Of a stretch of 64,000 nucleotides of DNA, positions 520-43,189 are shown piece after piece. How positions within the stretch are numbered: position 1 is the first letter of the stretch; every line of letters begins with the position of its first letter. The stretch comes from Phyllobates terribilis (lineage: Eukaryota): assembly GCF_046119375.1 (NCBI RefSeq), contig NW_027362767.1, positions 256,494,001 through 256,558,000 of the forward strand. The letters are read 5' to 3'. The notes under the pieces are model-generated. The model worked only from the letters and a program-made list of their open reading frames with translations, had not been told where the DNA came from and did not search any database. The position numbers and the translations under genes were made by a program.

Positions 520-971
520 TCAGACTACTGTTGCATCATTGATGCCAATATAGTTTATCTGTGCTTGTATTTGTAGTCCACCTTTAGCTGATGCTTGTGG
601 TTTTGCTACTTCATAGGCGTCTGTAGGAGTCATGTTCATGCTTCCCATTTCTATGCCTCGGGACTGAGGTTTGGCCATGCTTTGTCTGGGCAGGACCACG
701 TTGTTCTGCAGGAAGTCGTACTTGTCAAGTGGTGCATGCTCGATGTGGCAGAGGGTCTCATCTCCCTCACTCATGTAACCAGCGTTGGTGCCCCTCATAT
801 CCTCCTCTGAGAGGCTGTACAGGTCCGGCAGGGTGGTCTGAGACGATTTATTATGCATCTCCTCCCGGCTGATGGAGTCATTGTCAGAGCACGGCTCCAC
901 CCTCCGGAAACAGTAACGGGCAAAGAGACTGATGAAGAACATCTCCATTGTTACAGAATAATTGTAGATGG
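520..971 (-). CDS. SLC51A-like: SLC51A-like last coding exon
   Basis: ccgcag| acceptor; last TM segment [23 protein letters not shown], then a long hydrophilic tail and TGA at 522-520. Confidence 0.88.
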
Positions 972-3900
972 CTGCGGAGGTGAAAAAACAGGAAGATTTA
1001 TTACTCTCCATAATTCCGATTGGACTCCGGAACATAGAAACAGCAGATTTTTACATGAATAATATACAAGCTGCACTGGACCTTCTTCCACAGATGTACA
1101 CATCCACCTGCCCCGGTCCTTCTGCCCAATACCACTCTCTGCACTTCCAACTGAATTTTCAATAGTCCCTTTAATACGATTTTCCTCTTACAAGTAGCCA
1201 TTTTTCCAACTGGATCGTTATCTCACCACCACCTAATCTAATGAGATTTTACCTAATACCAGGAGGGTGTTGGATAAAGGGTGAAAGTGGAAAACCCTTT
1301 TAAAGGGCATCTGCCATCATACCTCACAATACAAGCTGTAGATCTGATGAGACTGTTGTACTTGCTTTGATACGCCATGCCAGAATGGCTGTATAATACT
1401 TTATGAAAGTTAAAACTCAATCTAACGCCCACTTAGTTTGATTGACAGCTCCTCAGTGTCCCTCCTCTTTGCTGTTGCTGAGATGGCACACTGCTCAGTA
1501 CAAGCTGCAGCTGTCAGGCTGAATAGACAAAAAACTGAATACACTATGGCTGCATTCTCCCTCTGGACTCATTTTAATATTGGAATCATACCGCAATTCG
1601 GATATGGATTTTCACAGTAAGTGCACCTGCCTCATCAGGTCTAAGATATCTAATAATTTATGTATTGTGAAATCTGATGACAGATCTTGCTCCGTATAAT
1701 CCGCAGAGGTCCCCAAGCTGTGATGTCGCCATATGGCCACATCATGGCGCTTTGTAGATATTAAATCTTTAATAGCCTTATGTCCGGCAATAACATCTAA
1801 TCTTCTTCTATATAGACAATGTGAAATCACTTACTCTGAGAGCGCGTCTCCACCGTGAAGGGGGGGACACAAGGAATGGCTCCCAGGGCGGACATGGTCT
1901 CTAGGATCCCGTTCTGCAGCCCACACAAGACCAGCACCAGGGTGATGCAGATGAACTTGGATCTGGGACTGTAGCCCTCCAGTGCTTTCTTTGTGGCTTT
2001 GTAGAACAGCAGGTAGCCGTAGAAAGAAAGAAACGTAGACAAGCTGATGATGATGTTGATGTAGGAGTTGGGGTTGGTGTAGTCCACCTGGAAGTCATAA
2101 AATAGACTAAAGAAATGCCTTTTGCCATCTAGAATTACAGCCGTGGCCTGCAGATCTAGGGCTTGTGTCATCCGCATTGGATCAGTAAGTATAAAATAGG
2201 TTTTGCATAAAAAGTAGATGTAAAACCCTTTTATTTGGAGCACAGGAATGGAGGGACGAAGCATAAGGCGGGCTCTCTGTGTGTTAGGCCCTTCAGTTAG
2301 TCATGTGGCCACTAGAGGCGCTATGTTAGTGATAATAAGAGTCAAAGCCGTCCATGTATTCATACTCACATCCCCATAGTCATACTTCTCATCAGTCCAG
2401 AGAATGAGGCCCATGAAGAACAGAAGGGTCCGCACCACTGACAGCTGGTACACGGCAATATTCATCCACCGCAGGTTACTCCTGACACCGGGAACAAGAC
2501 ATGCTGGATTATTCTGTACATGTATCATGGCAGCAACGTCTACATCCTGCTCAGGGGAAGGCTTAGGCTGAATTCACACATCCTTGTTTTTTAACAATCA
2601 GCACAGTGATGGCATCTATGTGCCGTCCATTACAACATGGACCCATTCACATCCTGTTTTTTTTGAGGGTTTGCATCAGTTCAGGTAAAGAACATACAAC
2701 TGTGAATATTTGGTTTTCTCTTTATTTTGAAGAAAACAACAAATAGGAGAAAGTAACTGAGAACTTCAGTGTGCATAACTATTCACGCCCCTAAAGTCAG
2801 TACTTTGTAGAGCCTCCTTTTGCAGCAATTACAGCTGCAGGTCGCTTTGTATAAGTATCTATGAGCTTTCCACATCTTGCCACTGGGATTTTTGCCCATT
2901 CCTCAAGGCAAAACTGTTCCAGCTCCTTCAAGTTAGATGGTTTTCTCTGATGAACACCAATCTTCAAGTTGGACCACAGATTTTCAATTGGATTAAGGTC
3001 TTGGCTTTGACTAGGCCACGCCAAAACATTTACACGTTTCCCCTTAAACCACTCGAGTGTTGCTTTAGCTGTATGTTTTGGGTCATTGACATGTTGGAAG
3101 GTGAACCTCTGTCCCAGTCTCAAATCACTGACAGATTGAAATAAGCAAAACCTAAGAATAACCCTGTATTTCGCACCATTTATCGTCCCCATCAACTCAG
3201 ACCATTTTCCCTGTCTCCGCTTCCGAAAAACATCCCCACAGCAGGATGCTGCCACAATCATGTTTCACTGTGGGGATGGTGTTCTTGGGGTGATGAGCTG
3301 TGTTGATTTGGCACCAGACATAGCGTTTACCTTGGTGGCCAAAAAGTTCAATTTTGGTCTCATCTGACCACAGCACCTTCCTCCATACATTTGGGGAGTC
3401 GATCACATGTCTTTTGGCAAACTCAAAACGAACCTTACAAGTTTTGTGTGTAGGTAAAGGCTTTTTTTCTGCCCACTCTTCCATAAAAGCCACCAGCCTG
3501 AGAGTTTTGGTGGGCGGCCCTCTCTTGGCAGGTATGTTGTGGTAACATGCTCTTTCCATTTGATGATAATGGATTTGATGGTGCTCCGGGGATCATCAGA
3601 GATTGGGATATTTTTTTTTTTTTATAACCCAACCCTGACTTGTTCTTCTCAACAACTTTGTCCCTGACTTGTTTGGAGATCTCCTTGGTCTTCATGGTGT
3701 TGTTTGGAGATCTCCTTGGTCTTCATGGTGTTGTTTGGAGATCTCCTTGGTCTTCATGGTGTTGTTTGGAGATCTCCTTGGTCTTCATGGTGTTGTTTGG
3801 AGATCTCCTTGGTCTTCATGGTGTTGTTTGGAGATCTCCTTGGTCTTCATGGTGTTGTTTGGAGGTCTCCTTGTCTTCATGGTGTTGTTTGGAGGTCTCC

Positions 3901-6900
3901 TTGGTCTTCATGGTGTTTGGTTAGTGGTGCCTCTTGTTAATGGTGTTGCAGCCTCTGTGGCCTTTCAGAAAAGGTAAAGTGTATATACTGACAGACATGT
4001 GACATTAGATTGCACATAGGTGGATGTCCTGTCACTAAGCATGGGACTTATGAAGGGAATTGCTTGCACCAGAAATTTTTAGGGGCTTCATACCAAAAGG
4101 GGTGAATACATATGCACGTGACAAGTTATCTGATCCCATAAATGTAATTTGTGCCTATATTTTTCTCACTTCACCAACTTAGACTATTTAGTGCTGATGC
4201 ATCACACACAAATCGGATTACAAAAATATTTAAACACAGGTTCTAATGTAATAAAATAGGTAAAAAACCAAGGGAGTGAATTCTTTCGCAAGAGACTGTA
4301 TATACTATCATGGGTGCATGTTATATCTTTTTTTTTTTTTAATTCAGCTTTTCTAAAAAAAAAGCTTTTTCAGCGTTTTTAGAAAACCAGACCCTTGACA
4401 TCACCCTGTCCTTTGCCCTTTTATACATTCCCTGCAGACACTATAACCCATCTCCTCCATTTATGTTTTGCCGCAAAACAATATGAACGTTTTTTTTTTC
4501 TCCCGATGCCCACACCACAAACAGGGCACCACATTCTATTGTACCCACCTGTTCACAACAATGTTGGGGAAACAGCAGCAACAGCAGCACGGGGGCGGGT
4601 TGGGGGCGACCGTCTGACCCCCCAGTTCTTCTAACATTTTTGCTTTACCACCAAAGAAATCCGTTATCAGGTCCAAGAATTTCCAAAGTGTTATGGAGTG
4701 ATATCTGCAAAGAGACACAAACGGTGATGAGGACGGCACGTTCATAAGCTCGGACTGGCAGCACGGTGCGTGACGTCAGCAACAGTTCTACGGAGTTTCA
4801 ATCGGCGCCCGTGATCATCGATACCAGGAGCAATGTCATTGTATGTGAATGGGATTTATCTATACCATCTGGGCAGTGGGGAAATTCTACAGAGCCCCCA
4901 GATATGCACCCAGCCTAGTTACACTGTAAAACACACCACTGGGGACGCTTTTGCTCTAGGGTATGTTGTCAAATGTGTTCAGAGTAAATTACAACTTACA
5001 TAGAAGCCACGAAGTTACAGATGGAGGAGGAGCGGGGAATGTACATTCCTATAATGGAGGCGATGCAGATTACCTGGCCAAGGGGGAAAAAGGGGCTGTT
5101 AGTTAACCCATAATCTACCAAAACGGCATCAGCGTCTCCACTTGACTCGACATATCGAATGTCGTCTTACAAATTCACTTAATTATTTAACGGGGATCTC
5201 CACCTGATTATATTTTATTGTCATGTGGATACATTAACCCGTCTTCTCACAGAGCATATACATCTATACAGTGGCATGTAAAAGTTTGGGCACCCCTGGT
5301 CAAAATTACTGTTATTGTGAACAGTTAAGCAAGTTGAAGATGAAAGGCCTAAAGTTAAAGATGAAAGACAAAAAAGGGGGTGGGGTGGAAAAGCGCAGTG
5401 CTTGTGTGAACCTGTATGGAAGTAGAATATACGTGCAGATACAGTGGTCTGCTCACTTGGGTGGGTTGTGCAGACCGCACAACCCAGGTTAAACAGCTAC
5501 TGGCGCTGATAGCGCTGCCACGATGCCTTCAGTGTCTCCTCTGGATTAGCAGATGGAGCTTCCAATCATGTGATTCCGGGTGGGGTCACATGGGTGATGA
5601 CATCATTGCAGGTCCTACAGGTCCTGCAGCTGAAATTGTATCCAGTTTTCTGCAGCCTCCAGCCACAACTCCCAAGGGAATAGTGAACAGTGTGCAAATT
5701 GAAGTGGTCAGTGGGGCGCTAGAAACTGGATAAGGCGCTGGAAAAGGATAAAACAAACCTCTTTATTGAAGTATTAATGCCCACAACGCGTTTCTGCAGC
5801 GGTCTGCTGCCTTCATCAGGTGGAGTGAGTCACTCACTCCACCTGATCAAGGCAGCAGACCGCTGCAGAAACGCGTTGTGGGCATTAATACTTCAATAAA
5901 GAGGTTTGTTTTATCCTTTTCCAGCGCCTTATCCAGTTTCTAGCGCCCCACTGACTACTTCAATTTGCATAAAGTTAGAGATGACACATTTCCTTTGTAT
6001 TTTAGGGGAAAAAATTGTAATTTTTTACATTATAAAAATTACAAAAAGGAAAATGGGTCGAAGCAAAAGTTTAGGCACCCTTGGAGATCTGTGTGCTCAG
6101 ATAACTTTGACCAAGGTTTCAGACCTTAATTAGCCTGTTAGGGTTATGGCTTGTTCACTATCATCATTAGGAAAGGCCAGGTGATACAAATTTCCCAGCT
6201 TTATAAAAACCCAGCCTCCTCTAACCTTGTGCCGAAAAACAGCAGCTGTGGGTCCTTCTAAGCAGCTGCCTAGCACTCTGCAAATGGTGGAGGCCCACAA
6301 AGCAGGAGAAGGCTATAAGAAGATAGCAAAGCGTTTTCAAGTTGCCCTTTCCTCATTTCAAAATGTAATTAAGAAATGGCAGTTAACAGGAACAGTGGAG
6401 GTCAAGATAAGGTCTGGAAGACCAAGCAAAATTTTAGTGAGAGCTGCTCATAGGATTGCTAGAGAGGCAAATCAGAACCCCCGCTTGACTGTAAAAGACC
6501 ATCAGCTAGATTTAGCAGACTCTGGAGTTGTGGTACATTGTTCTACTGTTCAAAGACACCTGCACAAATATGGCCTTCATGGAATCATCAGAAAAAAACC
6601 TCTCCTGCATCCTCACCATAAAATTCAGCGTCAGAAGTATGCAAAGGAATATCTAAACAAGCCTGATATATTTTGGAAACAAATCCTGTGAACCGATGAG
6701 GTTAAAATAGAACTCTTTGGCCACATTAATCAAAGGTACAGTACAGACCAAAAGTTTGGACACAACTTCTCATTTAAAGATTTTTCTGTATTTTCATGAC
6801 TATGAAAATTGTACATTCACACTGAAGGCATCAAAACTATGAATTAACACATGTGGAATTATATACTTAACAAAAAAGTGTGAAACAACTGAAAATATGT

Positions 6901-9692
6901 CTTATATTCTAGGTTCTTCAAAGTAGCCACCTTTTGCTTTGATGACTGCTTTGCACACTCTTGGCATTCTCTTGATGAGCTTCAAGAGGTAGTCACCAGA
7001 AATGGTTTTCACTTCATAGGTGTGCCCTGTCAGATTTAATAAGTGGGATTTCTTGCCTTATAAATGGGGTTGGGACCATCAGTTGTGTTGTGCAGAAGTC
7101 TGGTGGATACACAGCTGATAGTCCTACTGAATAGACTGTTAGCTGCTTTTTTCTTGCCATAATACAAATTCTAAGTAAAGAAAAACGAGTGGCCATCATT
7201 ACTTTAAGAAATGAAGGTCAGTCAGTCCGAAAAATTGGGCAAACTTTGAATGTGTCCCCAAGTGCAGTTGCAAAAACCATCAAGCGCTACAAAGAAACTG
7301 GCTCACATGAGGACCGCCCCAGGAAAGGAAGACCAAGAGTCACCACTGCTTCTGAGGATAAGTTTATCCGAGTCACCAGCCTCAGAAATAGCAGGTTAAC
7401 AGCAGCTCAGATTAGAGACCAGGTCAATGCCACACAGAGTTCTAGCAGCAGACACATCTCTACAACAACTGTTAAGAGGAGACTTTGTGCAGCAGGCCTT
7501 CATGGTAAAATAGCTGCTAGGAAACCACTGCTAAGGACAGGCAACAAGCAGAAGAGACTTGTTTGGGCTAAAAAACACAAGGAATGGACATTAGACCAGT
7601 GGAAATCTGTGCTTTGGTCTGATGAGTCCAAATTTGAGATCTTTGGTTCCAACCACCGTGTCTTTGTGCGACGCAGAAAAGGTGAACGGATGGACTCTAC
7701 ATGCCTGGTTCCCACCGTGAAGCATGGAGGAGGAGGTGTGATGGTGTGGGGGTGCTTTGCTGGTGACACTGTTGGGGATTTATTCAAAATTGAAGGCATA
7801 CTGAACCAGCATGGCTACCACAGCATCTTGCAGCAGCAGCATGCTATTCCATCCGGTTTGCATTTAGTTGGACCATCATTTATTTTTCAACAGGACAATG
7901 ACCCCAAACACACCTCCAGGCTGTGTAAGGGCTATTTGACCAAGAAGGAGAGTGATGGGGTGCTATGCCAGATGACCTGGCCTCCACAGTCACCAGACCT
8001 GAACCCAATCTAGATTGTTTGGGGTGAGCTGGACCGCAGAGTGAAGGCAAAAGGGCCAACAAGTGCTAAGCATCTCTGGGAACTCCTTCAAGATTGTTGG
8101 AAGACCATTTCCGGTGACTACCTCTTGAAGCTCATCAAGAGAATGCCAAGAGTGTGCAAAGCAGTCATCAAAGCAGAAGGTGGCTACTTTGAAGAACCTA
8201 GAATATAAGACCTATTTTCAGTTGTTTCACACTTTTTTGTTAAGTATATAATTCCACATGTGTTAATTCATAGTTTTGATGCCTTCAGTGTGAATGTACA
8301 ATTTTCATAGTCATGAAAATGCAGAAAAATGTTTAAATGAGAAGGTGTGTCCAAACTTTTGGTCTGTACTGTATGTGTGGAGAAAAAAAGGCACAGAATT
8401 TCAGGAAAAGAACATCTCGCCAACCATTAAGCATGGGGGTGGATCAATCATGCTTTGGGGTTGTGTTGCAGCCAATGGCATTGAGAACATTTTATGGGTA
8501 GAGGGAAGAATAGGTTCAATGAAATTTCAGTAAATTCTTGATGCAAACACAACACCATCTGTACAAAAGCTGAAGCTGATATGAGGATGGCTTCTACAAA
8601 TGGATAATGATTCTAAACACAAGTCAAAATCCACAATAGACAACCTCAAAAGGCGCAAGCTGACAGTTTTACAATGGCCCTCACAGTTCCCGGATCGAAA
8701 CATTACTGAAAATCTGGCTACACCTCAAAATAGCCGTGCATGCAAGACGACCCAGGAATTTCACAGACCAGGACGGATTGTCCAAGGAAGGATGGATGAA
8801 AATCCCTCTAACAAGAACTGAAAGACTCTTGGGTGGCTACAAAAAGTGTTTACAAGCTGTGATACTCGCAAAAGGGTGGGGGGTGGGGGGGTTACTACAA
8901 GGTAGTTAGCGTGCAGGGTGCCCAAACTTTTGCATTGGCCCATGTTACGTTTTGTAATTTTTAAAATGTAAAAAATGACTATATATTTTTATTTTTTGCC
9001 TAATATAAAAAAGGAAATTTGTCATCTTTAACTTTTGGCCTTTTAGAGATCATTTCATCTTCAACTTGCTTAACTGTTCACAATAACAGTAATTTTGACC
9101 AGGGGTGCCCAAACTTTTACATGCCACTGTATCCATACTTTAACTCTTTGCACAGTTCATGACTCTCACCGGATATACTCCCAGAATCCATAGGTACAGA
9201 CAGGTTCTCCGCGTGCTCCGAACATTCCGCAGGAAAAATCCCATCTCCTCCAGAAATAAAGCCAACTGAACACACCCGACCAGTACGGGAATGATGAATA
9301 TCCACAGGTCCTTCTTTATCACTATAAAAGAGGTGAATAGTACAGAAGGGCAGATTGCGGACAAACAGCAGGGGGCACTCGCCTGAGAGTGTGGGAAAGG
9401 GGTCCTGCCAGCTGACACACTAAAGCTAGATGATGACAATAGAGTAAAGTCCACCAGCTCAGCAATGACCACATGTTCAGCCAACGTTACTGAAGTAGTG
9501 TCAGACTATGACCATGCTCGCCCAATGTATTGGCCTAGTGCAGCTTATAGAAGGGGTATGAGTGTATTCAGCATCAGCCTATAGGGCTGGGTACTTTATA
9601 ACTTTATGTGTAAACACCATAGTACCTTGGAAAAACTCGGATGATAGGGGGAAGCTCCCCCCATCCATGGAACAGTTGGCCCCCTTCACCAT
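520..9692 (-). CDS. SLC51A-like: Organic solute transporter alpha-like (SLC51A-like), 7 coding exons, 1266 nt = 421 aa
   Basis: Exons 9692-9626, 9321-9170, 5073-5000, 4704-4549, 2481-2370, 2087-1835 and 971-520. All introns are GT-AG and phases are compatible. The ATG has a strong Kozak context (caccATGG) with an in-frame upstream TAA. The protein has the OST-alpha cysteine tract ([10 protein letters not shown]) and FLEE and IPRS motifs. Confidence 0.9.
1835..2087 (-). CDS. SLC51A-like: SLC51A-like exon 6
   Basis: ttccag| acceptor, |gtaagt donor; [14 protein letters not shown]...[14 protein letters not shown]. Confidence 0.9.
2370..2481 (-). CDS. SLC51A-like: SLC51A-like exon 5
   Basis: gtcag| acceptor, |gtgagt donor; [17 protein letters not shown]...YDYGD. 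Confidence 0.9.
2650..4298 (-). mobile_element. Degenerate Tc1/mariner transposon in a SLC51A-like intron
   Basis: Frameshifted transposase pieces (ORFs 3435-3695, 3197-3559, 2797-3261: [35 protein letters not shown]). One end ...gcaagagactg|TA at 4298; the other end is eroded, so the start is approximate. Confidence 0.85.
3669..3916. repeat. 31-bp tandem repeat x8 spanning the Tc1 start codon
   Basis: Unit ttgtttggagatctccttggtcttcatggtg. Confidence 0.92.
4549..4704 (-). CDS. SLC51A-like: SLC51A-like exon 4 (Cys tract)
   Basis: ttgcag| acceptor, |gtgggt donor; YHSITLWK...[11 protein letters not shown]. Confidence 0.92.
5000..5073 (-). CDS. SLC51A-like: SLC51A-like exon 3
   Basis: ggccag| acceptor, |gtaagt donor; [24 protein letters not shown]. 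Confidence 0.9.
5365..5969 (-). mobile_element. Penelope-like retro-insertion with a 277-bp palindrome and a hammerhead motif
   Basis: About 15-bp TSD taaagtta(a/g)agatga at 5350-5364 and 5970-5984; palindrome 5693-5969 centred on 5831. The PLE assignment is inference. Confidence 0.7.
5780..5824 (-). ncRNA. Type I hammerhead ribozyme motif (minimal, palindromic stem III)
   Basis: UCCAC-CUGAUGA-AG-GCAGC-AGACC-GCUGC-A-GAAA-CGCG-UU-GUGGG: stem I UCCAC/GUGGG, intact core boxes, stem II 5 bp. Confidence 0.65.
6739..8371 (+). mobile_element. Tc1-like element nested in the outer Tc1
   Basis: TA|cagtacagaccaaaagtttggacac...gtgtccaaacttttggtctgtactg|TA; transposase ORF 7189-8013 ([22 protein letters not shown]) ends in a premature stop. 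Confidence 0.95.
9170..9321 (-). CDS. SLC51A-like: SLC51A-like exon 2
   Basis: tttatag| acceptor, CCG|gtgaga donor; [11 protein letters not shown]...LFLEEMG...GVYP. Confidence 0.9.
9626..9692 (-). CDS. SLC51A-like: SLC51A-like coding exon 1 ([22 protein letters not shown])
   Basis: caccATGG start, CAAG|gtact donor, phase 1 fits the next exon. Confidence 0.85.
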
Positions 9693-11370: not shown

Positions 11371-14300
11371 ATGGGCAGGGTAAATCTTGTGTTTATGCCT
11401 GAAGTTTAAAGGAGCAAACTTTTTTTAATTCTATTTTTTTTGCCCAATCCGGGATCAAAGTCTTTAAAGTTTGGTGGAAACTGCATCAGAAATCACTGGT
11501 TTGTGATATTGGCCCTTTTTGTGTTAGGGAGTGAAAATATATTGTTATTAAAAAAAGGGAAAAACAAAAAAAAACAACAATATAGAAACTATCCTGAGCA
11601 GTGGGAACTAACTGTATGTGGCCCTGTAGGGGTTAATGGAGTGAGGGTGGGTGCAGGGGATTGGTCCTCTCTGTGCCTGGCTCAGCACATCTCTCCCTGA
11701 ATATGCAGAATCTCTGCCCAGTTCTGGAATCTGCCCCTTCTCTCGGGCACTGTGGGGGCATTCAGGGAATAAATGTGGGTGGTGCCAGGACCTGCGTGTT
11801 CAGTGCACAGAGACCCTCACACTCCATCGTACAAACCCAGCCACTGGGGCAAGATGCCAGAGGGAAAAGGTACGTTGTGCACTATAGCTGGGCACGGGCA
11901 GACCTAATGGGAAGCAGAGTCCGGACCCTCACATCTGGGGACCCTCTATAGGAGGCTGCATCCAAAGTGGGGACCCCCGCACTGACAGCTGTGTATGGGA
12001 ATGTGGGGGAGTATCACTAATTAGGCAGGATTTCTGTTCCCAGGATTGCTCCAGGCGGCGGTGCCCACACTGATATTGTGTCTGAAGCGGACGACTATTT
12101 ACTGGGGGTTCAGGGGTCTTTCTGGTGGTGGGTTGGTTGTCACACGTCCGGATGCATTAGTGTAATTCGGATTAATTGCTTCTGTTTTCACCCACAGGGG
12201 ACAAGACGGATAGAACTCTGTACAAGGTAAGGGCAGCCCGGTGCCAGCCCGGTGCCGCTGACGGGTGGAAGAATCATTTCAATACTTTATACAGAAATGT
12301 TCCTGGTGGTCAATTTGGAGGGAGGGGGCTTCTGACAAAAATAGAACCATCACTAAATGGCGCAGATGGGGTAATATATTTCTTGTATTTCTCTTTCTTG
12401 TGCTATTGTACCCATACATCAATATTTTGCTTAGAAAATCTTCCCCATAGACTTGTCACATGTAGAAATGTAAATTAATGAGCTGATAAGCGAGTAATGC
12501 AGCCTGTCACCAGATTTCACAATGCACATCTTGTACACCTGATGAGGCTGGTGTGTTTACTTTGATAATCCATGTCAGGCTGGCTCCACAGTATAGTCCT
12601 GATATTAATACGGGCATTCCTTGAATCCAGATAGAGCTCATTTAATATCAGTCAGCAAAACTTTCACGACACATAGTATACAGCCATGTTTACATGTATT
12701 TTAAAAGTAAGTACATTGGCCTCAGCAGGTCCAAGATATATATGAATTAATCTATGCAGTTTGTATTGTGAAATCTGATGATAGATCAAGTTTAAAAGGG
12801 AGATTAATATGAAAACTGTTCCTGATTTATTGCGCCTTCCCGTCCAGGAGAGAGGTCTAGTGTCAGCGTATAGACAAGCTCTTTCTGCACCAAATGAGAA
12901 GGAAAAAATAAGAAAAAGTGAGCGCTCAGGATCCTTTCACTCGCTAAGTTGGGAATCTTGTTCGTCAGTCTTTTCTTGTGACGATTTGTACCTTTATTCT
13001 CTCCTCAGAATCTGCCAGAACACCGGCACCGGGTGCAGGAGAAAAAAACACATGTTAAGAAGCAAAGAGGTAACAAAGTAAAAAAATTTCACAAATAGTC
13101 AAAATATGGAAAACACTTGAATTGTCATCATTATTATACAGAAGGGGCAGGGATTGTGGGGGGAGCTATGGTCATTATACTGGAGGGGCCTAGATAGTGG
13201 AAGGAGCTATGGTCATTATACTGGAGGGGCAGGGATTGTGGGAGGAGCTATGGTCATTATACTGGAGGGGCAGGGATTGTGGGAGGAGCTATGGTCATTA
13301 TACTGGAGGGGCCTAGATAGTGGAAGGAGCTATGGTCATTATACTGGAGGGGCCTAGATAGTGGAAGGAGCTATGGTCATTATACTGGAGGGGCCTAGAT
13401 AGTGGAAGGAGCTATGGTCATTATACTGGAGGGGCCTAGATAGTGGAAGGAGCTATGGTCATTATACTGGAGGGGCAGGGATTGTGGGAGGAGCTATGGT
13501 CATTATACTGGAGAAGCCTAGATAGTGGAAGGAGCTATGGTCATTATACTGGAGAGGCCTAGATAGTGGAAGGATCTATGGTCATTATACTGGAGGGGCC
13601 TAGATAGTGGAAGGAGCTATGGTCATTATACTGGAGGGGCAGGGATTGTGGGAGGAGCTACGGTCATTATACTGGAGGGGCCTAGATAGTGGGGGGAGCT
13701 ATGGTTATTATACTGGAGGGGCCTAGATAGTGGAAGGAGCTATGGTCATTTTACTGGAGGGGCCTAGATAGTGGAAGGAGCTATGGTCATTATACTAGAG
13801 AGGCCTAGATTGTGGGAGGAGCTATGGTCATTATACTGGAGGGGCAGGGATTGTGGGAGGAGCTATGATCATTATACTGGAGGGGCAGGGATTGTGGGAG
13901 GAGCTATGGTTATTATACTGGAGAGGCAGAGATTGCGGGAGGAGCTATGGTTATTATACTGGAGGGGCAAGGATTGTGGGAGGAGCTATGGTCATTATAC
14001 TGGAGAGGCCTAGATTGTGGGAGGAGCTATGGTCATTATACTGGAGGGGCCTAGATAGTGGAAGGAGCTATGGTCATTATACTGGAGGGGCCTAGATAGT
14101 GGAAGGAGCTATGGTCATTATACTGGAGGGGCAGGGATTGGGGGAGGAGCTACGATCATTATACTGGAGGGGCAGGGATTGTGGGAGGAGCTACGGTCAT
14201 TATACTGGAGGGGCCTAGATAGTGGGGGGAGCTATGGTTATTATACTGGAGGGGCCTAGATAGTGGAAGGAGCTATGGTCATTTTACTGGAGGGGCCTAG

Positions 14301-17300
14301 ATAGTGGAAGGAGCTATGGTCATTTTACTGGAGGGGCCTAGATAGTGGAAGGAGCTATGGTCATTTTACTGGAGGGGCCTAGATAGTGGAAGGAGCTATG
14401 GTCATTTTACTGGAGGGGCCTAGATAGTGGAAGGAGCTATGGTCATTATACTGGAGAGGCCTAGATAGTGGAAGGAGCTATGGTCATTATACTGGAGGGG
14501 CCTAGATAGTGGAAGGAGCTATGGTCATTATACTGGAGGGGCAGGGATTGTGGGAGGAGCTATGGTCATTATACTGGAGGGCAGGGATTGTGGGAGGAGC
14601 TATGGTTATTATACTGGAGGGGCAGAGATTGTGGGAGGAGCTATGGTTATTATACTGGAGGGGCCTAGATAGTGGGAGGAGCTATGGTTATTATACTGGA
14701 GGGGCCTAGATAGTGGGAGGAGCTATGGTTATTATACTGGAGGGGCCTAGATAGTGGGAGGAGCTATGGTTATTATACTGGAGGGGCCTAGATAGTGGGA
14801 GGTGCTATGGTCATTATACTGGAGAGGCCTAGATAGTGGGAGGAGCTATGGTCATTATACTGGAGAGGCCTAGATTGTGGGAGGAGCTATGGTCATTATA
14901 CTGGAGGGGCAGGGATTGTGGGAGGAGCTATGATCATTATACTGGAGGGGCAGGGATTGTCGGAGGAGCTATGGTTATTATACTGGAGGGGCAGGGATTG
15001 TCGGAGGAGCTATGGTTATTATACTGGAGGGGCAAGGATTGTGGGAGGAGCTATGGTTATTATACTGGAGGGGCAAGGATTGTGGGAGGAGCTATGGTCA
15101 TTATACTAGAGAGGCCTAGATTGTGGGAGGAGCTATGGTCATTATACTGGAGGGGCAGGGATTGTGGGAGGAGCTATGATCATTATACTGGAGGGGCAGG
15201 GATTGTGGGAGGAGCTATGGTTATTATACTGGAGAGGCAGAGATTGCGGGAGGAGCTATGGTTATTATACTGGAGGGGCAAGGATTGTGGGAGGAGCTAT
15301 GGTCATTATACTGGAGAGGCCTAGATTGTGGGAGGAGCTATGGTCATTATACTGGAGGGGCAGGGATTGTGGGAGGAGCTATGATCATTATACTGGAGGG
15401 GCAGGGATTGTGGGAGGAGCTATGGTTATTATACTGGAGAGGCAGAGATTGCGGGAGGAGCTATGGTTATTATACTGGAGGGGCCTAGATAGTGGGAGGA
15501 GCTATGGTCATTATACTGGAGGGGCAGGGATTGTGGGAGGAGCTATGGTCATTCTACTGGAGGGGCAGGGATTGTGGCTGGAGCTATGGTCATGATACTG
15601 GAGGGCCTAGATAGTGGGAGGAGCTATGGTCATTATACTGGAAGGGCAAGGATTGTGGGAGGAGCTATGGTCATTGTACTGGAGGGACAGGGATTGTGCG
15701 AGGAGCTATAGTTATTATACAGGAGGAGAATGGGATTGTGGGAGGAGCTATGGTCATTGTACTGGAGGGCAGGGATTGTGGGAGGAGCTATGGTCATTAT
15801 ACTGGAGAGGCCTAGATAGTGGGAGGAGCTATAGTCATTATACAGGCGTGTGAATAGTGGGAGGGGCTATAGTCATACAGAAGGGGCATGAATTGTGGGA
15901 GGAGCTGTAGTCATTATACAGGCGTGTGAATAGTGGGAGGGGCTATAGTCATACAGAAGGGGCATGAATTGTGGGAGGAGCTGTAGTCATTATACAGGAG
16001 GAGCAAGGATTGCAAGTGAAGCTATAGTCAGAATATAGGAGGGGTCGGGAACTGCTGGTGCAGTTATAGTCTGCAGGGAGAGTAGGAGGGGCAATAGTAA
16101 TTCAGGATGGGCAGGGATTGTGGGAGGGGCTGTAGTCAATGGACAAATAAAGCCAAATTAAAAAGGTCAGAAACAAGAGGGGGTACAGGCCATGACACTG
16201 GTAATTCTCACCCCTCTAGTTCTGCACCACTGCCATACACGTGGTTATTTTTGCCTTTTTTATATAATACCCAGTGCACACCATTTCATTTATGCCCGTT
16301 TTAAAAACACAGAGGATGAGGGGGTGAATGATTTTAATTCTAGAACAATCTAATTTTTGTACTATACTTATTTCTTGCCAACCATGCCCAGTTTGACTTA
16401 AAGGGAAAGTGTCATCAGAAAATGACCTAAGAATTTTTATATTCTTTTTCACCTTATCACAAGATTGTGAAATTGTGCAGTTTTCTCTTTGAGCCTCACA
16501 TCACATGGGTGGTCCTGTAGAGATCAGATAGTTTGCTGTTTCTGGGCCACCTGAACAAACGGACAAGTTCAGAAATTGAACTCCGTTTGTGTCATTGCAG
16601 TCTGTGGTCCCATCAGCATCCGTCTGAATCCTGTTTTTTTTTTTGGGGGGGGGGGGGGGGGGGATCAGGTGGATTCCCCAAACACACCACAGAAAATGCA
16701 ATGTGTACAGTGCCTTACATAGGATCCACCATTCACAATGGGCGGTGTCACAGCTCACCTCCTCCCCTCCCTGCACAATGACTTCTGCACAGGTCACTGA
16801 GCAAGCCCACAACTCTGTCTCATCAAAGTCAATGTACAGCTCCAGACCATAATATACTATAGTGGATACATTCTCTTTAAAAGAGAGAGATGCTAGAGGA
16901 GAGGGCTATTAAGGCTATACTGCCTTCCTCTATGTCGAGATCTGAGCATTTAATGTTACAGGCCCAAAGCCTGAGACTGCACTACTGAGGGAGACTGATG
17001 ACAACATACCGAGTGGTGCGGTTACGCCGGCCTCACGCGGATCCAAATCCATAAACACGGATATTACTTACTATGCATCTACTTGTACACATTTTAGTAA
17101 CATCTGACCCTCTTCCTGTCCCCTTATCTCCCCCCAAGGACAGCCGCCGAGAGCGAAGCGGTAATTTCCAGTCCTTTGTGCGAATGGCACTGGAGACGCT
17201 GCTGGGTTCATGTCGCAGAAAACGCGGGATCCACCACACCTCCACAGAGCACGTGCAGACCAGCAAAACCTTTATGTCCTGGCACCGCCACAGTCTTCCC

Positions 17301-18016: not shown

Positions 18017-21000
18017 CTGGATAATGAGAGGAGTATCAGCAGCAATGGAGGCAAACATTACACAATGACTACCAATATGAGGTTGCCACCCTACTGGTAA
18101 ATGGTCTAATTAGAGGGGTGGTCCACCTTTGGATACAATTTTTTTTCTTAAATGCATATATTTTTGGCAATCGGTTTCATTAAAAATTTTGCACAGTTTG
18201 TTGCCTATAGTCTCTGTGTTGCATGGCTACAGAACGAGGTTACTGAGAATCCATCAGTGAGCTGACTGAGATGGTCTGGCGGGTAGTTTGTAACACTTTT
18301 ATCTGTCTTTATTTGAGATCCTTTCAACTGATTTATATTATATTAAAGTTGACTGTACAGTAAAACAAGAAGCCTGTAAAAGCCAAACGGTGCAAAATGG
18401 TTCATGAAACCCAACTGCAAAAATTGTTTATAGCCCCCAAATACATGCATTTAAGTAACATAAAAAAAGTCCCCATAAAGTGGACAAATCCTTTAAAAGC
18501 AGCAGTGTACATTTTCCATTGAGCAGCCTGGACAGGTTATGTTTCACAGAATTTGAAAGGTATGAGAAAAAGCACCATCATGCTCACCTGATCGGGCTGT
18601 GTACACACAACCCTGAAAGAGACTTAAGCCCCCGTCTCATATAGCGAGATCGCTGCTGTGTCACGGTTTTGGTGACGCAACAGCGACCTCACCAGCGATG
18701 TCGCTATGTGTGACACTTTGCAGCGATCAGGCCCCTGCTGTGAGGTCGCTGATCGCTGCAGAATGTCCTGGACCATTTTTTGGTCGTTGCCCTCCCGCTG
18801 GTCAGCACACATCGCTGTGTGTGACCAGCGGGAGCAGCGATCAGGCTGGTAACCATGATAAACATCGGGTTACTAGGGGCACACGCGCACTTAGTAACCC
18901 GCTGTTTATCATGGTTACAAGCCTGCTAAAGTGAGCGGTAACCTCCCGCTCACCGTAGCAGAGTGGTAACCATGATAAACATCGGGTTACTGGGGGCACA
19001 CGCGCACCTAGTAACCCGTTGTTTATCATGGTTACCAGCCTGCTCCTGCTTCAGCAGGCTCGTAACCAGGAGCAGGACATCGTGGAAAGATTCTTTCCAC
19101 GATGTCGCTGCTCCCCTGATCGTTGGTGAGCCTGCCTGTTTGACAGCTCACCAGCGACCACATAGCGACGCAGCAACGATCCCTGACAGGTCGTATCGTT
19201 GTAGGGATCGTTGCAGCGTCGCTAAGTGTGTCGGGGCCTTTAGCCTGCTGCAGACCACCGAGGAAGAAAAAGGCACTGTAAACAATATGGGTTAAACTGC
19301 GCTGCCGTCGAATGATGATGAAAAGACATAAATCAATTTATGCAGTTTATTCGTCAACGCGTTTCAAAGTTTCAAACTTCATCAGGACAAAACCACGGTG
19401 GTTTTGTCCTGATGAAGAAGTTTGAAACTTCGAAAATGATTCCAGTCTTTTCATCATCATTCGACGGCAGCGCAGTTTAACCCATATTGTTTCCAGTGCC
19501 TTTGATCACAAAATTTGAAAGGAAGAGTGACCCCTAGTGGACAACTTATCAGGAACATCATTTTTTTTTTTTTTTTTTAAATAATTTATTCATACACCGT
19601 TTTACCTCTTCTTCGCTGGTATCTTCAGCGTCTGTATCAAATAAAGACCCCAAGTACGTCAGCTGAAGTATAGCCATGACGCCGAACAGCGTGTTAATCA
19701 GGAGCACCAGAGGACCCTGGTAGGAAGGCGAAACACGAGAGCTGGTCACAGTCTGACAGGTCACATACAAAAGCCAATGACTGCTTAAAAGTGAGTGCAG
19801 AAAAACAACAGGTTTTACAATAAGGAATGCAAACAGGCAGCGCGCGCGTGTGCGTGCGTGCGTGTGTGCGTGTGTGGATAAATGCGTGATGTGGCCCATT
19901 TAGTGCCGTGATCCTACCAATGTTTTACCTTTTTGTTATGGTGGGTGCAGGATGATGAGCATTTCTTGGACAGTATGCAGGCACTGAAGACCTCTGCAAG
20001 TCTCCTCCGGAGCACTGATATAGAGAGGGGGGGGGGGGGGGGGGGGGGGTGGGACAAATTAGGGGGCTATAAAAGCAACAACAACAACGAGGCAAACATG
20101 ACCATAAAATTGTACGAATGGTATGGAGATATCCTCCAGAGCAGCGATCAGTGAAGATGCTCCCACACGTGAAGACCTGCTAGATTCAGAACAAGATGGT
20201 TCCTGGGCCACAATCACAGCGGGAAATATTACGAGGCAGAACCACAACCACATACAATATACACTGTGTTCCAAATTATTATGCAAATAATATTTTCTCA
20301 AATTACCTATATGAATTGCAGTCATTGTAATTTTCCAGTCAAATAACTATTAGAGCACAATTGAAAGGTTTTTGTACAAACTGCCTATGATAACAGTATA
20401 TTTTAAAAAAAATAAACTCAAACTGCACTCAAAATGCATGTTCCAAATTATTATGCACAGCAGAGTTTTCAACCTTTTCATTTTAATAAAGAACAAAAAA
20501 ATGGTCATTTTTGAAATTATAAGCATTAGCAGGTTATTACAAACTGAAATCAAACAGTTTTCAACTCAAAACTTTATTCTAGGTGATGTTACATTTGCAC
20601 ATAGGACCGCTTGTTCGAAAGGAGCTTCTGAACTCTCTCGTCCATTGAATTTGTCAGGTTTTGGATGGTTTCTGCTTCAATTGTTTTGCATGAGGACAGA
20701 ATACCCTCCCAGAGCTGTTGCTTAGATGTGAACTGCCTCCCGCCATCATAGACACTCCTTTTGATGATGCTCCTGAGGTTCTCAATGGGGTTGAGGTCAG
20801 GGGAGCATGGGGGCCACACCATAAGTTTGTCCCCTTTTATGCCCATAGCAGCCAGAGATGCAGATGTGTTATGTGCAGCATGAGACGGGGCATTATCATG
20901 CATGAAATGATCTCAATGGTCCAGATGGATGGAGTGGAGGATGGCTGGTTGATGGACACCCCATGAAAAAACGGCTAAGGCGCTAACAAGGAGGAGGTGG

Positions 21001-24000
21001 AGTAATGCTTTGGGCTGGAATCATGGGGAGAGAGATTGTCGGCCCTTTTAGGATCCCTGAAGGGGTAAAGATGAACTCCATAATGTATGTTGAGTTTCTC
21101 AAACAGCACTTCATGCCATGGTTCAAGAAGAAGAACCGTGCACTCCGCAGCAAGATCATTTTCATGCATGATAATGCCCCGTCTCATGCTGCACATAACA
21201 CATCTGCATCTCTGGCTGCTATGGGCATAAAAGGGGACAAACTTATGGTGTGGCCCCCATGCTCCCCTGACCTCAACCCCATTGAGAACCTCTGGAGCAT
21301 CATCAAAAGGAGTGTCTATGATGGCGGGAGGCAGTTCACATCTAAGCAACAGCCCTGGGAGGGTATTCTGTCCTCATGCAAAACAATTGAAGCAGAAACC
21401 ATCCAAAACCTGACAAATTCAATGGACGAGAGAGTTCAGAAGCTCCTTTCGAACAAGGGGTCCTATGTGCAAATGTAACATCACCTAGAATAAAGTTTTG
21501 AGTTGAAAACTGTTTGATTTCAGTTTGTAATATCCTGTTAATGCTTATAATTTCAATTTTTTTGCTCTTTATTAAAATGAAAAGGTTGAAAACTCTGCTG
21601 TGCATAATAATTTGGAACATGCATTTTGAGTGCAGTTTGAGTTTTTTATTTTTTTAAAAATATACTGTTATCATAGGCAGTTTGTACAAAAACCTTTCAA
21701 TTGTACTCTAATAGTTATTTGACTGGAAAATTACAATGACTGCAATTCATATAGGTAATTTGGGAAAATCTGAGAAAATATTATTGGCATAATAATTTGG
21801 AACACAGTGTAGATGGAAAACAGTCGGATGACTTACCATGTTCGACGTAAGTGATGAAACCCAGAGATAAAAGCACAGCCGCCAGGTGGAAGCTGAGACC
21901 CTGGGAGAACACAAAGGAATATGTAATTAAAAGGGTTAACCACCTGTGGGGGCTTACTTTTCTTAATCAAATAACATAATTTTTGTAATTAGGTTTCATG
22001 AAAAATTTAGCAACGTTTGCCTTCTCCCGTTTACCTCTGTACTGCACTGTCCATTGCTGGCTGCAGAATGAGTTAACTGAGAATCTGTCAGTGAACTCAT
22101 TAGGCAAGGCTGATGGCCACACACCACATTACTGTTTAACGGTGCAAAATTTCTTTGACGTCCAATTGCAAAAATGATTTTTCACCCCAAATCCACGTAT
22201 TTAAATAAAAAAATAACATTTTACCCAAAAGTGAACAATCACTTTAAACCTGTACAGACATCGTATAAATACATCTAACATGAGACTCACATGAAGTAAA
22301 GCGCTGGCGGCATATGTTACAATGATGGCGTGAAACGTGCCGAGCTTCAGAGCGTTCTTGAACACATCTGATGAGAAGATTTAGGAAGGTTAAAAAAGGG
22401 GGCGAAGATCTTATTGAATCCAATATCCAAGCTTTCCTACAGCCATGTTCCTGCATAAGACGCCCCAGAAGACGGACAAGGTACAGAGTCCTGCATGCCA
22501 GGAATATCCTTACATGTGTGCAGCCATCGGGACATGGGCCGGTTCCAGCTTGTCACCACGTCCACCATGGAGCGAGGAATCTCTACATTCAGTGGATAAG
22601 AAACCGAGAGATCCCTGAAGAGAAACAAAGATGGATCACCCTATGATGGCCGGGGATGAGGACGACAGATCATGGCCACGCGTGGACTCACCAGTGAACG
22701 TGGTCTTTCTCCTCCGTGAACCCAGCACCGGATAGGACGGCGGTCACCTCAGACAAGAACCCCACAAAATAATTACTGAAATGGAAAGATGACGCGTTCT
22801 CGTAGGCCCGCAGCCACCTGCACAGGACAGCAAAACATCAGCTCCGAGCAAGAACTCAATTCCTCCCACCCCCAAAAGTGAGCAGACTAATCACAGTGCG
22901 TGGCATGTAGCACGTCAGTCAGCGGATAATAGTGGGGTCACGTAGTATCTAGTGCTGGTGTCTCATATGGGCCTCCTTATCTCCATGGCCCGGGGGTGAC
23001 GGCACCCCACGGACCCCCTATACTTGAGCCGCTGGGGACAGGTGTAGGGGTATACGGACTATTCTCCATGGAGTTTTTAAAATTAAACAGTCCAACCAAA
23101 AATAAAACTTAGATGTTACTAAAAATGTGGGTGTCTTAACTTAGTAAGTTTTGTTCTTGCAGAATTTGCCATTACATTATGGTTTCTACACTGTAATAAC
23201 TCTCGAGCATCATTCCCCCATCTGACGCAGGCGAGTCAGGTGACAACTAAGCGAACAAGCGCCCAATTATAGGTCACAGATTGGGAGTTAGTTTTTTTTT
23301 TTTTTTTAATAAATATTACAAAAAAAAAAAAAAAAAAAGGCAAAAAGACCTTACTTACCGTACAACAAGACCCCTGCCACCAAGAAAAAATAAATAAATA
23401 ATATCAAGATCATGGCTAATGACAAGGAGGTGAATGTGGGTGTCGGGGGATGGGTGGTCAGAGTCGGGGTGTAAGTTATGGGTTACACAAGGTGAGGCGG
23501 CTGAGATGACATTAGAATTGTCACAACCTGTAACTCTATGAAGGGAACGGCACAGCAACACAATCAGTACAAATCCTAGATAATAATATTCCCGATGCTT
23601 TCTCCCTCTCCGCCATCGGGTGTGGAAAGGCAGGAGAGCGTGCTCCCATCTGACAGCTATCGTGCACGTGTCCTATTGATGAGGATGGCACCCGTGCATA
23701 ATAACTTTATTATCTAATAACTGCAATGGATGAAGGGATAATAATGAATGGACGCTTTGTATCACTGTGCACAGTGCAGCAGATTTACCAGGACGGGTGC
23801 AGGGGGAGCAGTTACGGGGGCAATTACTTTTCCTTTGCACCAGTTCAGATAAATCTGTTCCATGAGGAAAGGATGGATCAGGGAGGGGAGGACAGAGAAT
23901 ACCTGGCTTTACGTTTCTTACTGGAGAATCCGAGGAAACATAAAGGGAAAGGAAAAACAAAAAAAAAGAGCTGAGAAATACATAGTGAGGATGAAGAGCA

Positions 24001-29779: not shown

Positions 29780-31030
29780 CATCTAGTGAAATCTCTACTA
29801 CCACCTAGTGGCAGAATTAAATTACTACATGCAGAACATATGTTTTTGCTGTCACCTGGTGTTAAAACTAGATAATTACATTCATCAATACTAATATATT
29901 AATCTCTACTACCTCCTAGCGGCAGCATTAAATTACTACATGTAGCTCACAAGTTTTTGCTGCCATCTTGTGTTAAAACTAGGTAATTACATGCAACAAT
30001 ACTAATATATTAATCTCTATTACCACCTAGAGGCAGAATTAAATTACTGCATTCACAGCACATGTTTTTGCTGCTGCCTGGTGTTACAACTAGGTAATTA
30101 CATTCATCAATACTAATCTCTACTACCACCTAGCGGCAGCATTAAATTACTACATGCAGGGCACATGTTTTTGCTGCCACCTGGTGTTAAAATTAGGTAA
30201 TTAAATTAAACAATACTAATATATAAATCTCTACTACCACCTAGCAGCAGAATTAAATTACAGGGAAAATATATATTTTTGTACCGTGTTAGCCAGTAGA
30301 TAGAAAAATATTTAGATTTGAGAGTCCTCAGTGGTTGATACCTTTTAATGGCTAACTGAAAAGAGGGTAACAAATTGCAAGCTTGCGAGACTACATAGTT
30401 CTGGCTGTAAATATTGGAGCAGTTCATAGATAAGGAGTGTGAAAATGTTATTGTCTTGTTACTGAAGTCTGGTCCAGGGTTGTGGGGGCATCACAACCCT
30501 AGACCAGACCTCAGTCACAGGGCAATAAAACCTTCACACTCCTTATCTATGAACTGCTCCAATATTTACTGCCAGAACTGTTTCTCCCTCTCCCATAGTA
30601 ATATCTCTGCTTTACATCACCTGTCTCATCCATTACATTATTTCTGTGTCCTATTGTGTATAAATATGTGACTCTTCAGATTTCATGTTATATGATGCCT
30701 GATGTAGAGACCTGAGTAGTCTCGAAAGCTTGCAATTTGTTACCATCTTTTCAGTTAGCCATTAAAAGGTATCAACCACTGAGGACTCTCAAATTAAATT
30801 ACTGCATTCAGAGCATGTTTTTGCTGCCACTTGATGTTAAAACTAGTTAATTACATGCACCAATACTAATATATTAATCTCTACTACCACCTAGGGGCAG
30901 AATTAAATTATTGCATTGAAAGCACATGTTTTTGCTGCTATCTGGTGTTAAAACTAGGTAATTACATGTATCAATACTGATCTATTAATTTCTACTACCA
31001 CCAAGTGGCAGAATTAAATTACTACATGCA
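29780..31030. repeat. Degenerate AT-rich tandem repeat of about 130 bp (further copies near 31690-31930)
   Basis: Recurring aattaaattactacatgca...aatctctactaccacctag. Confidence 0.8.
30262..30791 (+). mobile_element. Penelope-like insertion with nested inverted repeats and a hammerhead-like motif
   Basis: 11-bp TSD aattaaattac at 30251-61 and 30792-802; terminal IR about 30309-30399 vs 30714-30791; motif at 30694-30736. Confidence 0.7.
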
Positions 31031-41975: not shown

Positions 41976-42750
41976 CTGTTATTGGAAACCGTCAACAAGA
42001 TTGTTATCAAACAGGCAAGCTCCTACAGTGGGACAGTAATGGGTTATTATTCACATTATATGAATGTTGACCGAACTCAATGATTTTGGTGGAACCACCC
42101 GACCACGTAATGTGTATAGGGGTCTCCTAACTCTGTCACAGTAGATGAGTCTGGGGAAAATAAGAATCGGGCATATTGAATTTCAATTTGCTGAATCCTT
42201 TTGTTCTTTAGGGAGTTGTCCCCTCGCTATTGAGAACACATGCACGCTCACCTGAGCTGATCATGCATGTATATAGGAAGGTTGAGAGGTAAATCTGTCA
42301 CAAGAACTAGGTGAGCTTCCCTGGCAGCCGGAGGCCAGACGGTGGCACCTGCCCACTGAGGTCCTATTTGTGGATATCAGGTTTTCCTGATTACTGGTGC
42401 GATCACTGGCTCGGTCTGTGATCCTGTATTTTTCGGTCCGATGCCACACAAACGCTGGTCTCTAGGACTGACGCCTCTTATCGGTCTTACAGAGCGATAC
42501 TGTCTCCTGACCTTTGTTTTCTGGTAATTCCAGGGCCGCGTCCTTGTCCCTTTTATCTCTGCTTATAGAGAGAATATGATAAGAGCGCTGTTATACAAAG
42601 TATAATATGTACAGGGTGATTGAATCGTCCTTTAATCTTGATCCTGATCTCTACAGACCCAGAATGAGGCACAGTGAATCTCTGTACAAGTGCCCCCCCA
42701 TACATGGTGCTGTGATCCTCCCAGCTGATCTGCCCATGTCATTATTAATT

Positions 42751-43189
42751 CTTTACTTAGCTGCTTTTTTCTTGCCATAATACAAATTCTAACAGTCTAT
42801 TCAGTAGGACTATCAGCTGTGTATCCACCTGACTTCTGCACAACACAACTGATGGTCCCAACCTCATTTATAATTCAAGAAATCCCACTTATTAAACCTG
42901 ACAGGGCACACCTGTGAAGTGAAAACCATTTCCGGTGACTACCTCTTGAAGCTCATCAAGAGAATGCCAAGAGTGTGCAAAGCAGTCATCAAAGCAAAAG
43001 GTGGCTACTTTGAAGAACCTAGAATATAAGACATATTTTCAGTTGTTTCACACTTTTTTAAGTATATAATTCCACATGTGGTAATTCATAGTTTTGATGC
43101 CTTCAGTGTGAATGTACAATTTTCAAAGTCATGAAAATACAGAAAAATCTTTAAATGAGAAGGTGTGTCCAAACTTTTGGTCTGTACTG
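42751..43189 (-). mobile_element. Terminal fragment of the same Tc1 family as 6739-8371 and 52597-54191
   Basis: Near-identical to 53750-54191; ends ggtctgtactg|TA. Confidence 0.9.

Follow-up and report, generated by a model that had tools for sequence, protein, structure and literature searches.

A palindromic hammerhead insertion in an intron of Phyllobates terribilis and how its Penelope-like family may have formed it

How does a nearly perfect palindrome with a hammerhead motif in each half come to lie in an intron, and does it act on the gene around it? The question is raised by a locus in the window, the whole stretch of 64,000 nucleotides of Phyllobates terribilis DNA analyzed here. 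The first-pass annotation of this stretch described a retro-insertion at 5365-5969 flanked by a target site duplication (TSD), and this description holds. The insert is 605 bp long, and the palindrome inside it (277 bp, 5693-5969) has its axis at C5831 and arms of 138 bp with two mismatches (5814/5848 and 5706/5956). The two copies of the 15-bp TSD (5350-5364 and 5970-5984) differ by one mismatch. The empty site with a single copy of the TSD was found 1,295 times in the genome, a 10.6-Gb frog assembly, and the reversed sequence used as a control gave 0 matches; these counts establish the TSD as real and show that the insert landed in a high-copy Tc1-like transposon. The inner 4 nt of the left TSD also fit a continuation of the element, +421 to +424 when counted from the predicted hammerhead cut site, which is the numbering used throughout.

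The host gene is an SLC51A/OST-alpha-like gene on the minus strand (523-9692, seven coding exons by tblastn), and its nearest proteins are OST-alpha-like (SLC51A-like) proteins of poison frogs, with 99% identity over one exon. As annotated, the insert is found in intron 2, between the exons at 9328-9167 and 5073-4999 and about 290 nt before exon 3. A small contig elsewhere in the assembly (G000:C7988:11654-13098) carries an intronless Solute_trans_a frame of 433 aa, which is a retrocopy or a contaminant. The DNA transposon that received the insert in its left end occupies 5269-9129, has 80-bp perfect inverted ends and TA flanks, and was judged Tc1/mariner-like by eye. Most of intron 2 is taken up by nested Tc1-like elements, with inverted ends at 6737-7010/8100-8373 and at 6009-6081/8915-8987, and further copies lie at 42749-43191 and 52668-54193. 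In the other long palindromes or inverted-end elements of the window (18839-19045, 30397-30579, 50980-51294 and 20292-21769) no match to the hammerhead core was found. Minisatellite arrays with periods of 41 nt and 19 nt are present at about 13000-15900 and from 31873.

The limits of the arms need a correction, since the true element arms begin at 5826 and 5836 and are separated by a junction of 9 nt (5827-5835) which does not belong to the family. This junction is symmetric, with a 4-nt duplication per arm around the axis. Both arms start at -42 and point outward. The long arm (5365-5826, element sense on the minus strand) ends at +420 and the short arm (5836-5969, element sense on the plus strand) at +92; the 328 nt at 5365-5692 form an asymmetric tail on the minus strand, between two putative start sites of reverse transcription. 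The insert thus consists of two pLTR stubs without an ORF, and its long arm has 7 differences in 462 nt from a full-length copy (L061).

The minus-strand hammerhead (5824-5780, predicted cut between 5785 and 5784) is of the minimal type I with a palindromic stem III, as had been described, and its core is the family consensus. CUGANGA, GAAA and UH are present together with stems I and II, and A9 is separated from G10.1 by an additional A, as is usual for the hammerheads of Penelope-like elements (PLEs). Stem I of the annotation exists, with the correction that it is made of four Watson-Crick pairs plus a U.G. An AATAAA (5762-5767, minus strand), 18 nt past the cut site, is part of the pLTR and lies within the hairpin that the two arms can form. 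The plus-strand hammerhead (5838-5882) does carry the G8C change, at 5848, and the change is private to this copy; in a PLE of Anolis G8C abolishes cleavage (PMC11167929).

An Infernal-type search, which had been suggested as a check, scored the motif at only 10.6 bits (Rfam Hammerhead_1 on 66 nt, E=6.1, cut-off 34), and an Rfam scan of the whole window gave no hammerhead, only miRNA-hairpin look-alikes under the cut-off. Because this score is far below the cut-off, the hammerhead call rests on family conservation and covariation. The other check asked for was covariation. It is present in both stems I and II when nine family representatives are compared: pairing is 94% in stem II (52% when shuffled) and 85% in stem I (46%). 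None of 5000 shuffles reached the value of either stem, which is not to be read as a probability since the families are related. The G.A mismatch at the base of stem II and the GUU cleavage site had been taken as possible weaknesses of this copy; both turn out to be the family state, found in 414 exact genome matches to the 34-nt core. When stem II is left free in the search pattern, the matches rise to 4,525 and come from many families. At 10.1/11.1 the G.A recurs in other families, and the nine representatives have G-C (4), G-U (4) and G.A (1). G10.1.A11.1 is the normal state of the family and no damage. Lunse et al. 2017, as cited in a review (PMC6765202), reportedly describe PLE hammerhead variants and may already cover such G.A variants.

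The parent family was recovered by pattern searches, which were used instead of an initial DNA search that mostly hit one segmental duplication (24/30 loci). One family insertion has been amplified together with the sequence flanking it, as a large tandem or segmental repeat that is spread over at least 24 contigs, most of them small (L003-L020, L024-L030). The full unit is 5,375 bp and codes for a reverse transcriptase (RT) together with a C-terminal GIY-YIG endonuclease upstream of the same hammerhead, which bears out the earlier proposal of a Penelope-like insertion with inverted pLTRs and a hammerhead of the dimer type. RT, GIY-YIG and a DKG motif sit in copies about 97% identical to the window pLTR and are absent from the window copy. 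The domain scores are slightly under the curated Pfam cut-offs (RVT_1 24.3 bits, E=3e-5; GIY-YIG 21.9 bits, E=2e-4). P0002 has a CCHH motif, YVVYLLQCGCGLQYVG with downstream histidines, in which two cysteines lie between GIY and YIG; this is a feature of EN+ PLEs (PMC8557442). P0002 also has the CX2-5CxxC linker between RT and EN (CRSPGCLCC); by this linker motif, which is also found in Nematis, the clade would be Neptune-type. Partial tandem pLTRs and inverted 5'-truncated copies with TSD both occur in the family, as in EN+ PLEs. The hammerhead strand is the element sense, and the window holds two sense stubs facing outward from the axis. The copy is almost certainly a non-coding, promoterless stump of a Neptune-type PLE, head-to-head and 5'-truncated.

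Canonical EN+ PLEs have a single ORF. In L061:4392-5993 (G000:C3:215109000-215118999) an ORF of 533 codons lies before and overlaps the RT-EN frame, and the same stop after 533 codons is found in three of nine matches carrying the first ATG. This may reflect an arrangement in two ORFs, an additional intron or a frameshift that the copies have in common; the 533-aa product matched no Pfam family, and its residues 1-190 had no Atlas match. Several independent insertions have near-identical target flanks (L034, L097, L222, L098, L290; L041, L111, L117; L035, L104), some across different families, which suggests that a few abundant repeats are repeatedly targeted.

The family is more informative than the window copy. 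The 3' ends of its arms, taken as alignment ends and hence uncertain by a few nt, fall in two tight classes at about +88 to +110 and +414 to +424. A scan of 143 loci left 64 distinct ones with arms on both strands, and 55 of these have both ends in the classes; in the other nine one end is deleted, off-class or read-through. Every one of the 55 pairs a short with a long arm (28 in one orientation, 27 in the other), with no long-long and no short-short pair, and the window copy (+92, +420) follows this rule. All 55 have a one-sided tail of about 325 nt, while 30-40 bp has been described as typical, not defining, for EN+ PLEs. TSDs of 13-21 bp flank 54 of the 55 (mode 15-16). Overlap between target and element at the 3' ends has raw means of 1.3 and 1.8 nt (44/54 insertions scored). 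A second, unrelated family ends at +71 to +96 and +467 to +482, which gives a tail of about 395 nt, and a third, judged by eye, near +100 and +435.

In the tails of four families a hairpin is conserved, and after it comes a splice-donor motif, some 90 nt short of the long end. In the window copy (5451-5486, minus strand) the hairpin is found at 5486-5462 and the GT of the predicted donor at 5456; the donor is the rare and weaker allele CAA/GTGAGC, seen in 3 of 121 motif matches in the fetched loci, against 115 with CAG/GTGAGC. The GTTGTG...CACAAC hairpin adjoining the donor (window 5486-5451; L157, L145, L147) is conserved in otherwise unrelated PLE families and may be regarded as a possible site of protein binding for the long start. 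In the family of the window copy a motif-based acceptor is predicted at +988, ahead of the first ATG. The long end itself was ruled out as a 3' splice site, as the sequence of the element goes on as TTTCAT and lacks an AG there. A real intron would mean that the long cDNA begins within it, on a template that must have been unspliced. A splice from +329 to +988 was found in none of the contigs of nine contig-only runs, a type of data which cannot reveal RNA starts, ends or strand. One contig of one presumed-RNA run (X2) leaves the element at the +329 donor (L061:3725) and continues into unrelated sequence, an exon absent from all fetched loci; it is possibly a chimeric transcript driven by the pLTR.

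To look at the 5' ends, arms were chosen by a motif at +69 to +92 in order to avoid a bias towards intact ribozymes; they are the first 100 of 598 listed places and not a random sample. Starts at -48 to -31 are found in 24 of these arms (1.3 expected), nine of them at -44, and starts at -1 to +7 in eight arms from seven insertions (0.8 expected), with windows drawn after inspecting the data; 38 arms extend past -600. The main peak is preceded, at a distance of about 30 nt, by a TATAAAAG box that begins at -75. For the second family the windows were fixed beforehand, and 97 distinct arms came from the first 100 of 1,610 listed places, again not random: 34 start at -52 to -29 (2.3 expected) and seven at -2 to +7 (1.4 expected), the seven representing five distinct events, with six arms at -1/+1. 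Both arms start at -48 to -31, like in the window copy, in 12 of the 55 two-ended insertions, a set enriched for intact ribozymes. Both begin at the cut site in L197, L202, L209 and L238, and L166 and L266 are mixed pairs. It was ruled out that a sub-family lies behind the cut-site starts, the GA/AT allele being common (113 vs 88 matches).

The simplest reading is that the main peak would be the capped start of the RNA and the minor peak the ribozyme cut. Transcription would then start some 43-45 nt ahead of the cut site and about 30 nt past the TATAAAAG box. Both cDNAs of the window copy would have reached the 5' end of an uncut RNA, which would put the mirror axis just before the ribozyme; as both arms start at -42, the copy records uncut RNA and has no TATA box. 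We find it likely that the mirror axis corresponds to the RNA 5' end. In a minority of copies the cDNAs would end at the cut site, which agrees with occasional cleavage in vivo, and we lean, with less assurance, towards taking these starts as a record of it. In one type of contig from three presumed-RNA runs, which probably stems from one insertion, a single extra G links ORF sequence to -42, as is expected for cap copying. The junction of L197 (700-1070) contains a second short piece of pLTR, which ends in a poly(A)-like run some 25 nt past AATAAA and is joined to +1; it looks as if a cut, polyadenylated RNA had served in a template jump.

The model that fits these observations best supposes that the element protein nicks both strands of the target, in a staggered cut of 15 bp, and primes a cDNA from each nick. 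Reverse transcription would begin at two internal sites, about +95 and about +420, the second within the predicted 5'-UTR intron, and the two cDNA 3' ends would be joined head to head via a few added or microhomologous bases. That priming from both nicks built the inserts is probable in our view, and for the explanation as a whole, two cDNAs from two nicks on unspliced and mostly uncut RNA, we would put the probability at roughly three in four. A 2-nt polymorphism has the same allele in both arms of all 34 informative insertions, which together with the arm extents fits two cDNAs made on one RNA or on sister RNAs of one source. In an Anolis PLE the protein nicks and extends both strands in vitro, two internal starts define the tail, and uncut RNA is used (PMC11167929).

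A palindrome may also arise when one cDNA, or an antisense template, folds back, primes itself and copies itself, after which the endonuclease resolves the hairpin and leaves the one-sided tail. Fold-back has been proposed in print for head-to-head palindromic junctions (PMC3846280), and resolution of a hairpin by EN for the tail (PMC8557442). The window copy by itself would suit this route: its arms share the start base and the 4-nt duplication foreign to the family, and for a mirrored duplication the simpler explanation is that one of the strands was copied from the other. The concordance of alleles (34/34) also fits, as do the ten of 55 insertions in which the two arms start within 5 nt of each other. 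In 26/55, however, the short arm reaches further to the 5' side (the long arm does so in 19) and has sequence absent from the long arm, while the long arm has the tail, and in nine the arms do not overlap at all; neither arm therefore copies the other, and fold-back cannot be the general route. We consider it quite unlikely as the origin of these inserts, and it may have finished the last few bases of the window junction. The palindrome could alternatively be a self-contained mobile unit, MITE-like or a retrozyme, copied as a whole. The 12 insertions of the same overall shape are what one would point to, but they differ in the junction and in the base where each arm starts and ends, arm lengths are continuous up to full-length elements, and no head-to-tail short tandem repeat was found; this idea is hardly credible. 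In L198:813-1409 both arms begin at +46 and are bridged by a palindromic foreign sequence of 159 nt.

Two further alternatives were weighed. The pile-ups of 5' ends could mark places where the RT stalls at the folded hammerhead, or hot spots of microhomology at the junctions, instead of RNA ends. Starts at +4 to +7 sit at the 3' edge of stem I, the starts of the main peak are scattered over -48 to -31, and short self-complementary words occur at many junctions, all of which would agree with this. The main peak lies 5' of the structure, though, which the enzyme has then already passed; just 1/100 arms starts at the edge (-9) of stem II, the more stable of the two stems; a TATA-like box precedes the peak by 26-31 nt in both families; and the second family has its six arms at -1/+1. 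Stalling is accordingly held to be unlikely in general, less likely for the main peak and possible for the starts at +4 to +7. The other alternative concerns the host, for the annotation had proposed that the minus-strand hammerhead, being transcribed within the SLC51A-like pre-mRNA, could cleave it. The motif is indeed sense to the gene, lies in intron 2 and equals the family consensus, and stem III is predicted to hold two isolated 45-mers together as a dimer (-35.1 kcal/mol, vs 2 x -13.4). In the pre-mRNA, on the other hand, the two arms would pair to form a hairpin of 138 bp, which leaves no room for the hammerhead fold: the predicted minimum free energy of the palindrome is -266.8 kcal/mol, and -188.2 with the hammerhead enforced (a difference of about 79), and for the nascent prefix the values are -113.5 and -47.2 (about 66). 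Transcription reaches the complementary arm first, and this arm would pair with the ribozyme, which would thereby be blocked. No same-strand partner with the family stems exists within the gene, the second copy being on the opposite strand and a further loose match at 1638 on the minus strand lacking these stems. Minimal PLE hammerheads were inactive as monomers and weak as dimers (PMC4209133), and this insertion is a young one within a transposon, one of hundreds. That it cleaves or regulates the pre-mRNA is highly improbable. The folding model makes us confident that the insert is inert towards its host, and the copy is ordinary and very probably harmless.

The inverted-pLTR architecture as such is already published, and pairs of hammerheads on opposite strands were noted in 2014 (PMC4209133). 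Pen2a_Av and other EN+ PLEs (PMC3846280, PMC8557442) share the head-to-head inverted 5'-truncated copy, the tail at one end, the TSD, a TATA/Inr-like motif in the pLTR and partial tandems. They differ in the length of the tail (31 bp and 30-40 bp, vs about 325 nt here and about 395 in the second family) and of the TSD (8-10 bp vs a mode of 15-16), and unlike them the window copy is two pLTR stubs without an ORF. Poseidon of Anolis carolinensis (PAc, PMC11167929) resembles the frog family in its two internal starts which define the tail, in the priming of both strands, in uncut RNA as the main template and in the effect of G8C on its ribozyme. The frog family differs from PAc in the Neptune-type linker, in an ORF that starts about 1 kb after the hammerhead instead of within it, in start sites about 325 nt apart, one of them in a predicted intron, and in cut-site starts, seen in a minority of the genomic arms, whereas Frangieh et al. 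(PMC11167929) found no PAc reads that end at the cut site. The minimal type I hammerheads of metazoan PLEs (PMC4209133) have the extra base after A9, a stem I of 4-5 bp, the palindromic stem III and opposite-strand pairs 100-700 bp apart, as here, but a highly conserved G10.1-C11.1 where the frog family has a fixed G.A. Non-LTR retrozymes (PMC7229834; bioRxiv 10.64898/2026.07.22.740005) have in common a type I hammerhead of pLTR origin, a non-coding nature and occurrence in amphibians; they are head-to-tail tandems of short units with ribozymes on the same strand, whereas the window insert is head-to-head with a TSD. PMC2377424 was also used. Searches of the literature on PLEs found no tail that is tenfold longer than usual and ends in a predicted intron, no strict pairing of long with short, no twin priming and no cut-site starts; this refers to literature other than Repbase reports, Arkhipova 2006, Lunse 2017 and the supplements of PMC11167929 (Fig. 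S2), which may bear on these points.

In the twin priming of L1 both target nicks prime cDNA, which results in an inversion. The arms of L1 do not overlap, and they start from the poly(A) and from an internal annealing site. In the frog family both arms start from fixed internal sites, and usually the same region is copied twice.

The start sites are about 325-395 nt apart, which makes the two ends unmistakable, so that the pairing of long with short and the 5' ends of the RNA can be counted in thousands of copies. The family bears on how the inverted ends and tail of PLEs are formed, on how an intron survives retrotransposition and on whether weak hammerheads cut in vivo, and it gives exact positions that can be checked by CAGE or RACE and in the in vitro assay that is already established. 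A wider proposal, offered tentatively and with the odds against it as a whole, is that the Penelope stumps of this frog are a genomic read-out of the life cycle of the element. One ribonucleoprotein would prime both nicks, using two fixed sites of the RNA that are separated by hundreds of bases and of which one lies in the 5'-UTR intron, and only unspliced RNA would transpose, so that the intron is retained. The palindromic stem III of the hammerhead would pair sister RNAs as templates, and in a minority these would be cut together, which would leave both arms at the cut site, as in L197, L202, L209 and L238.
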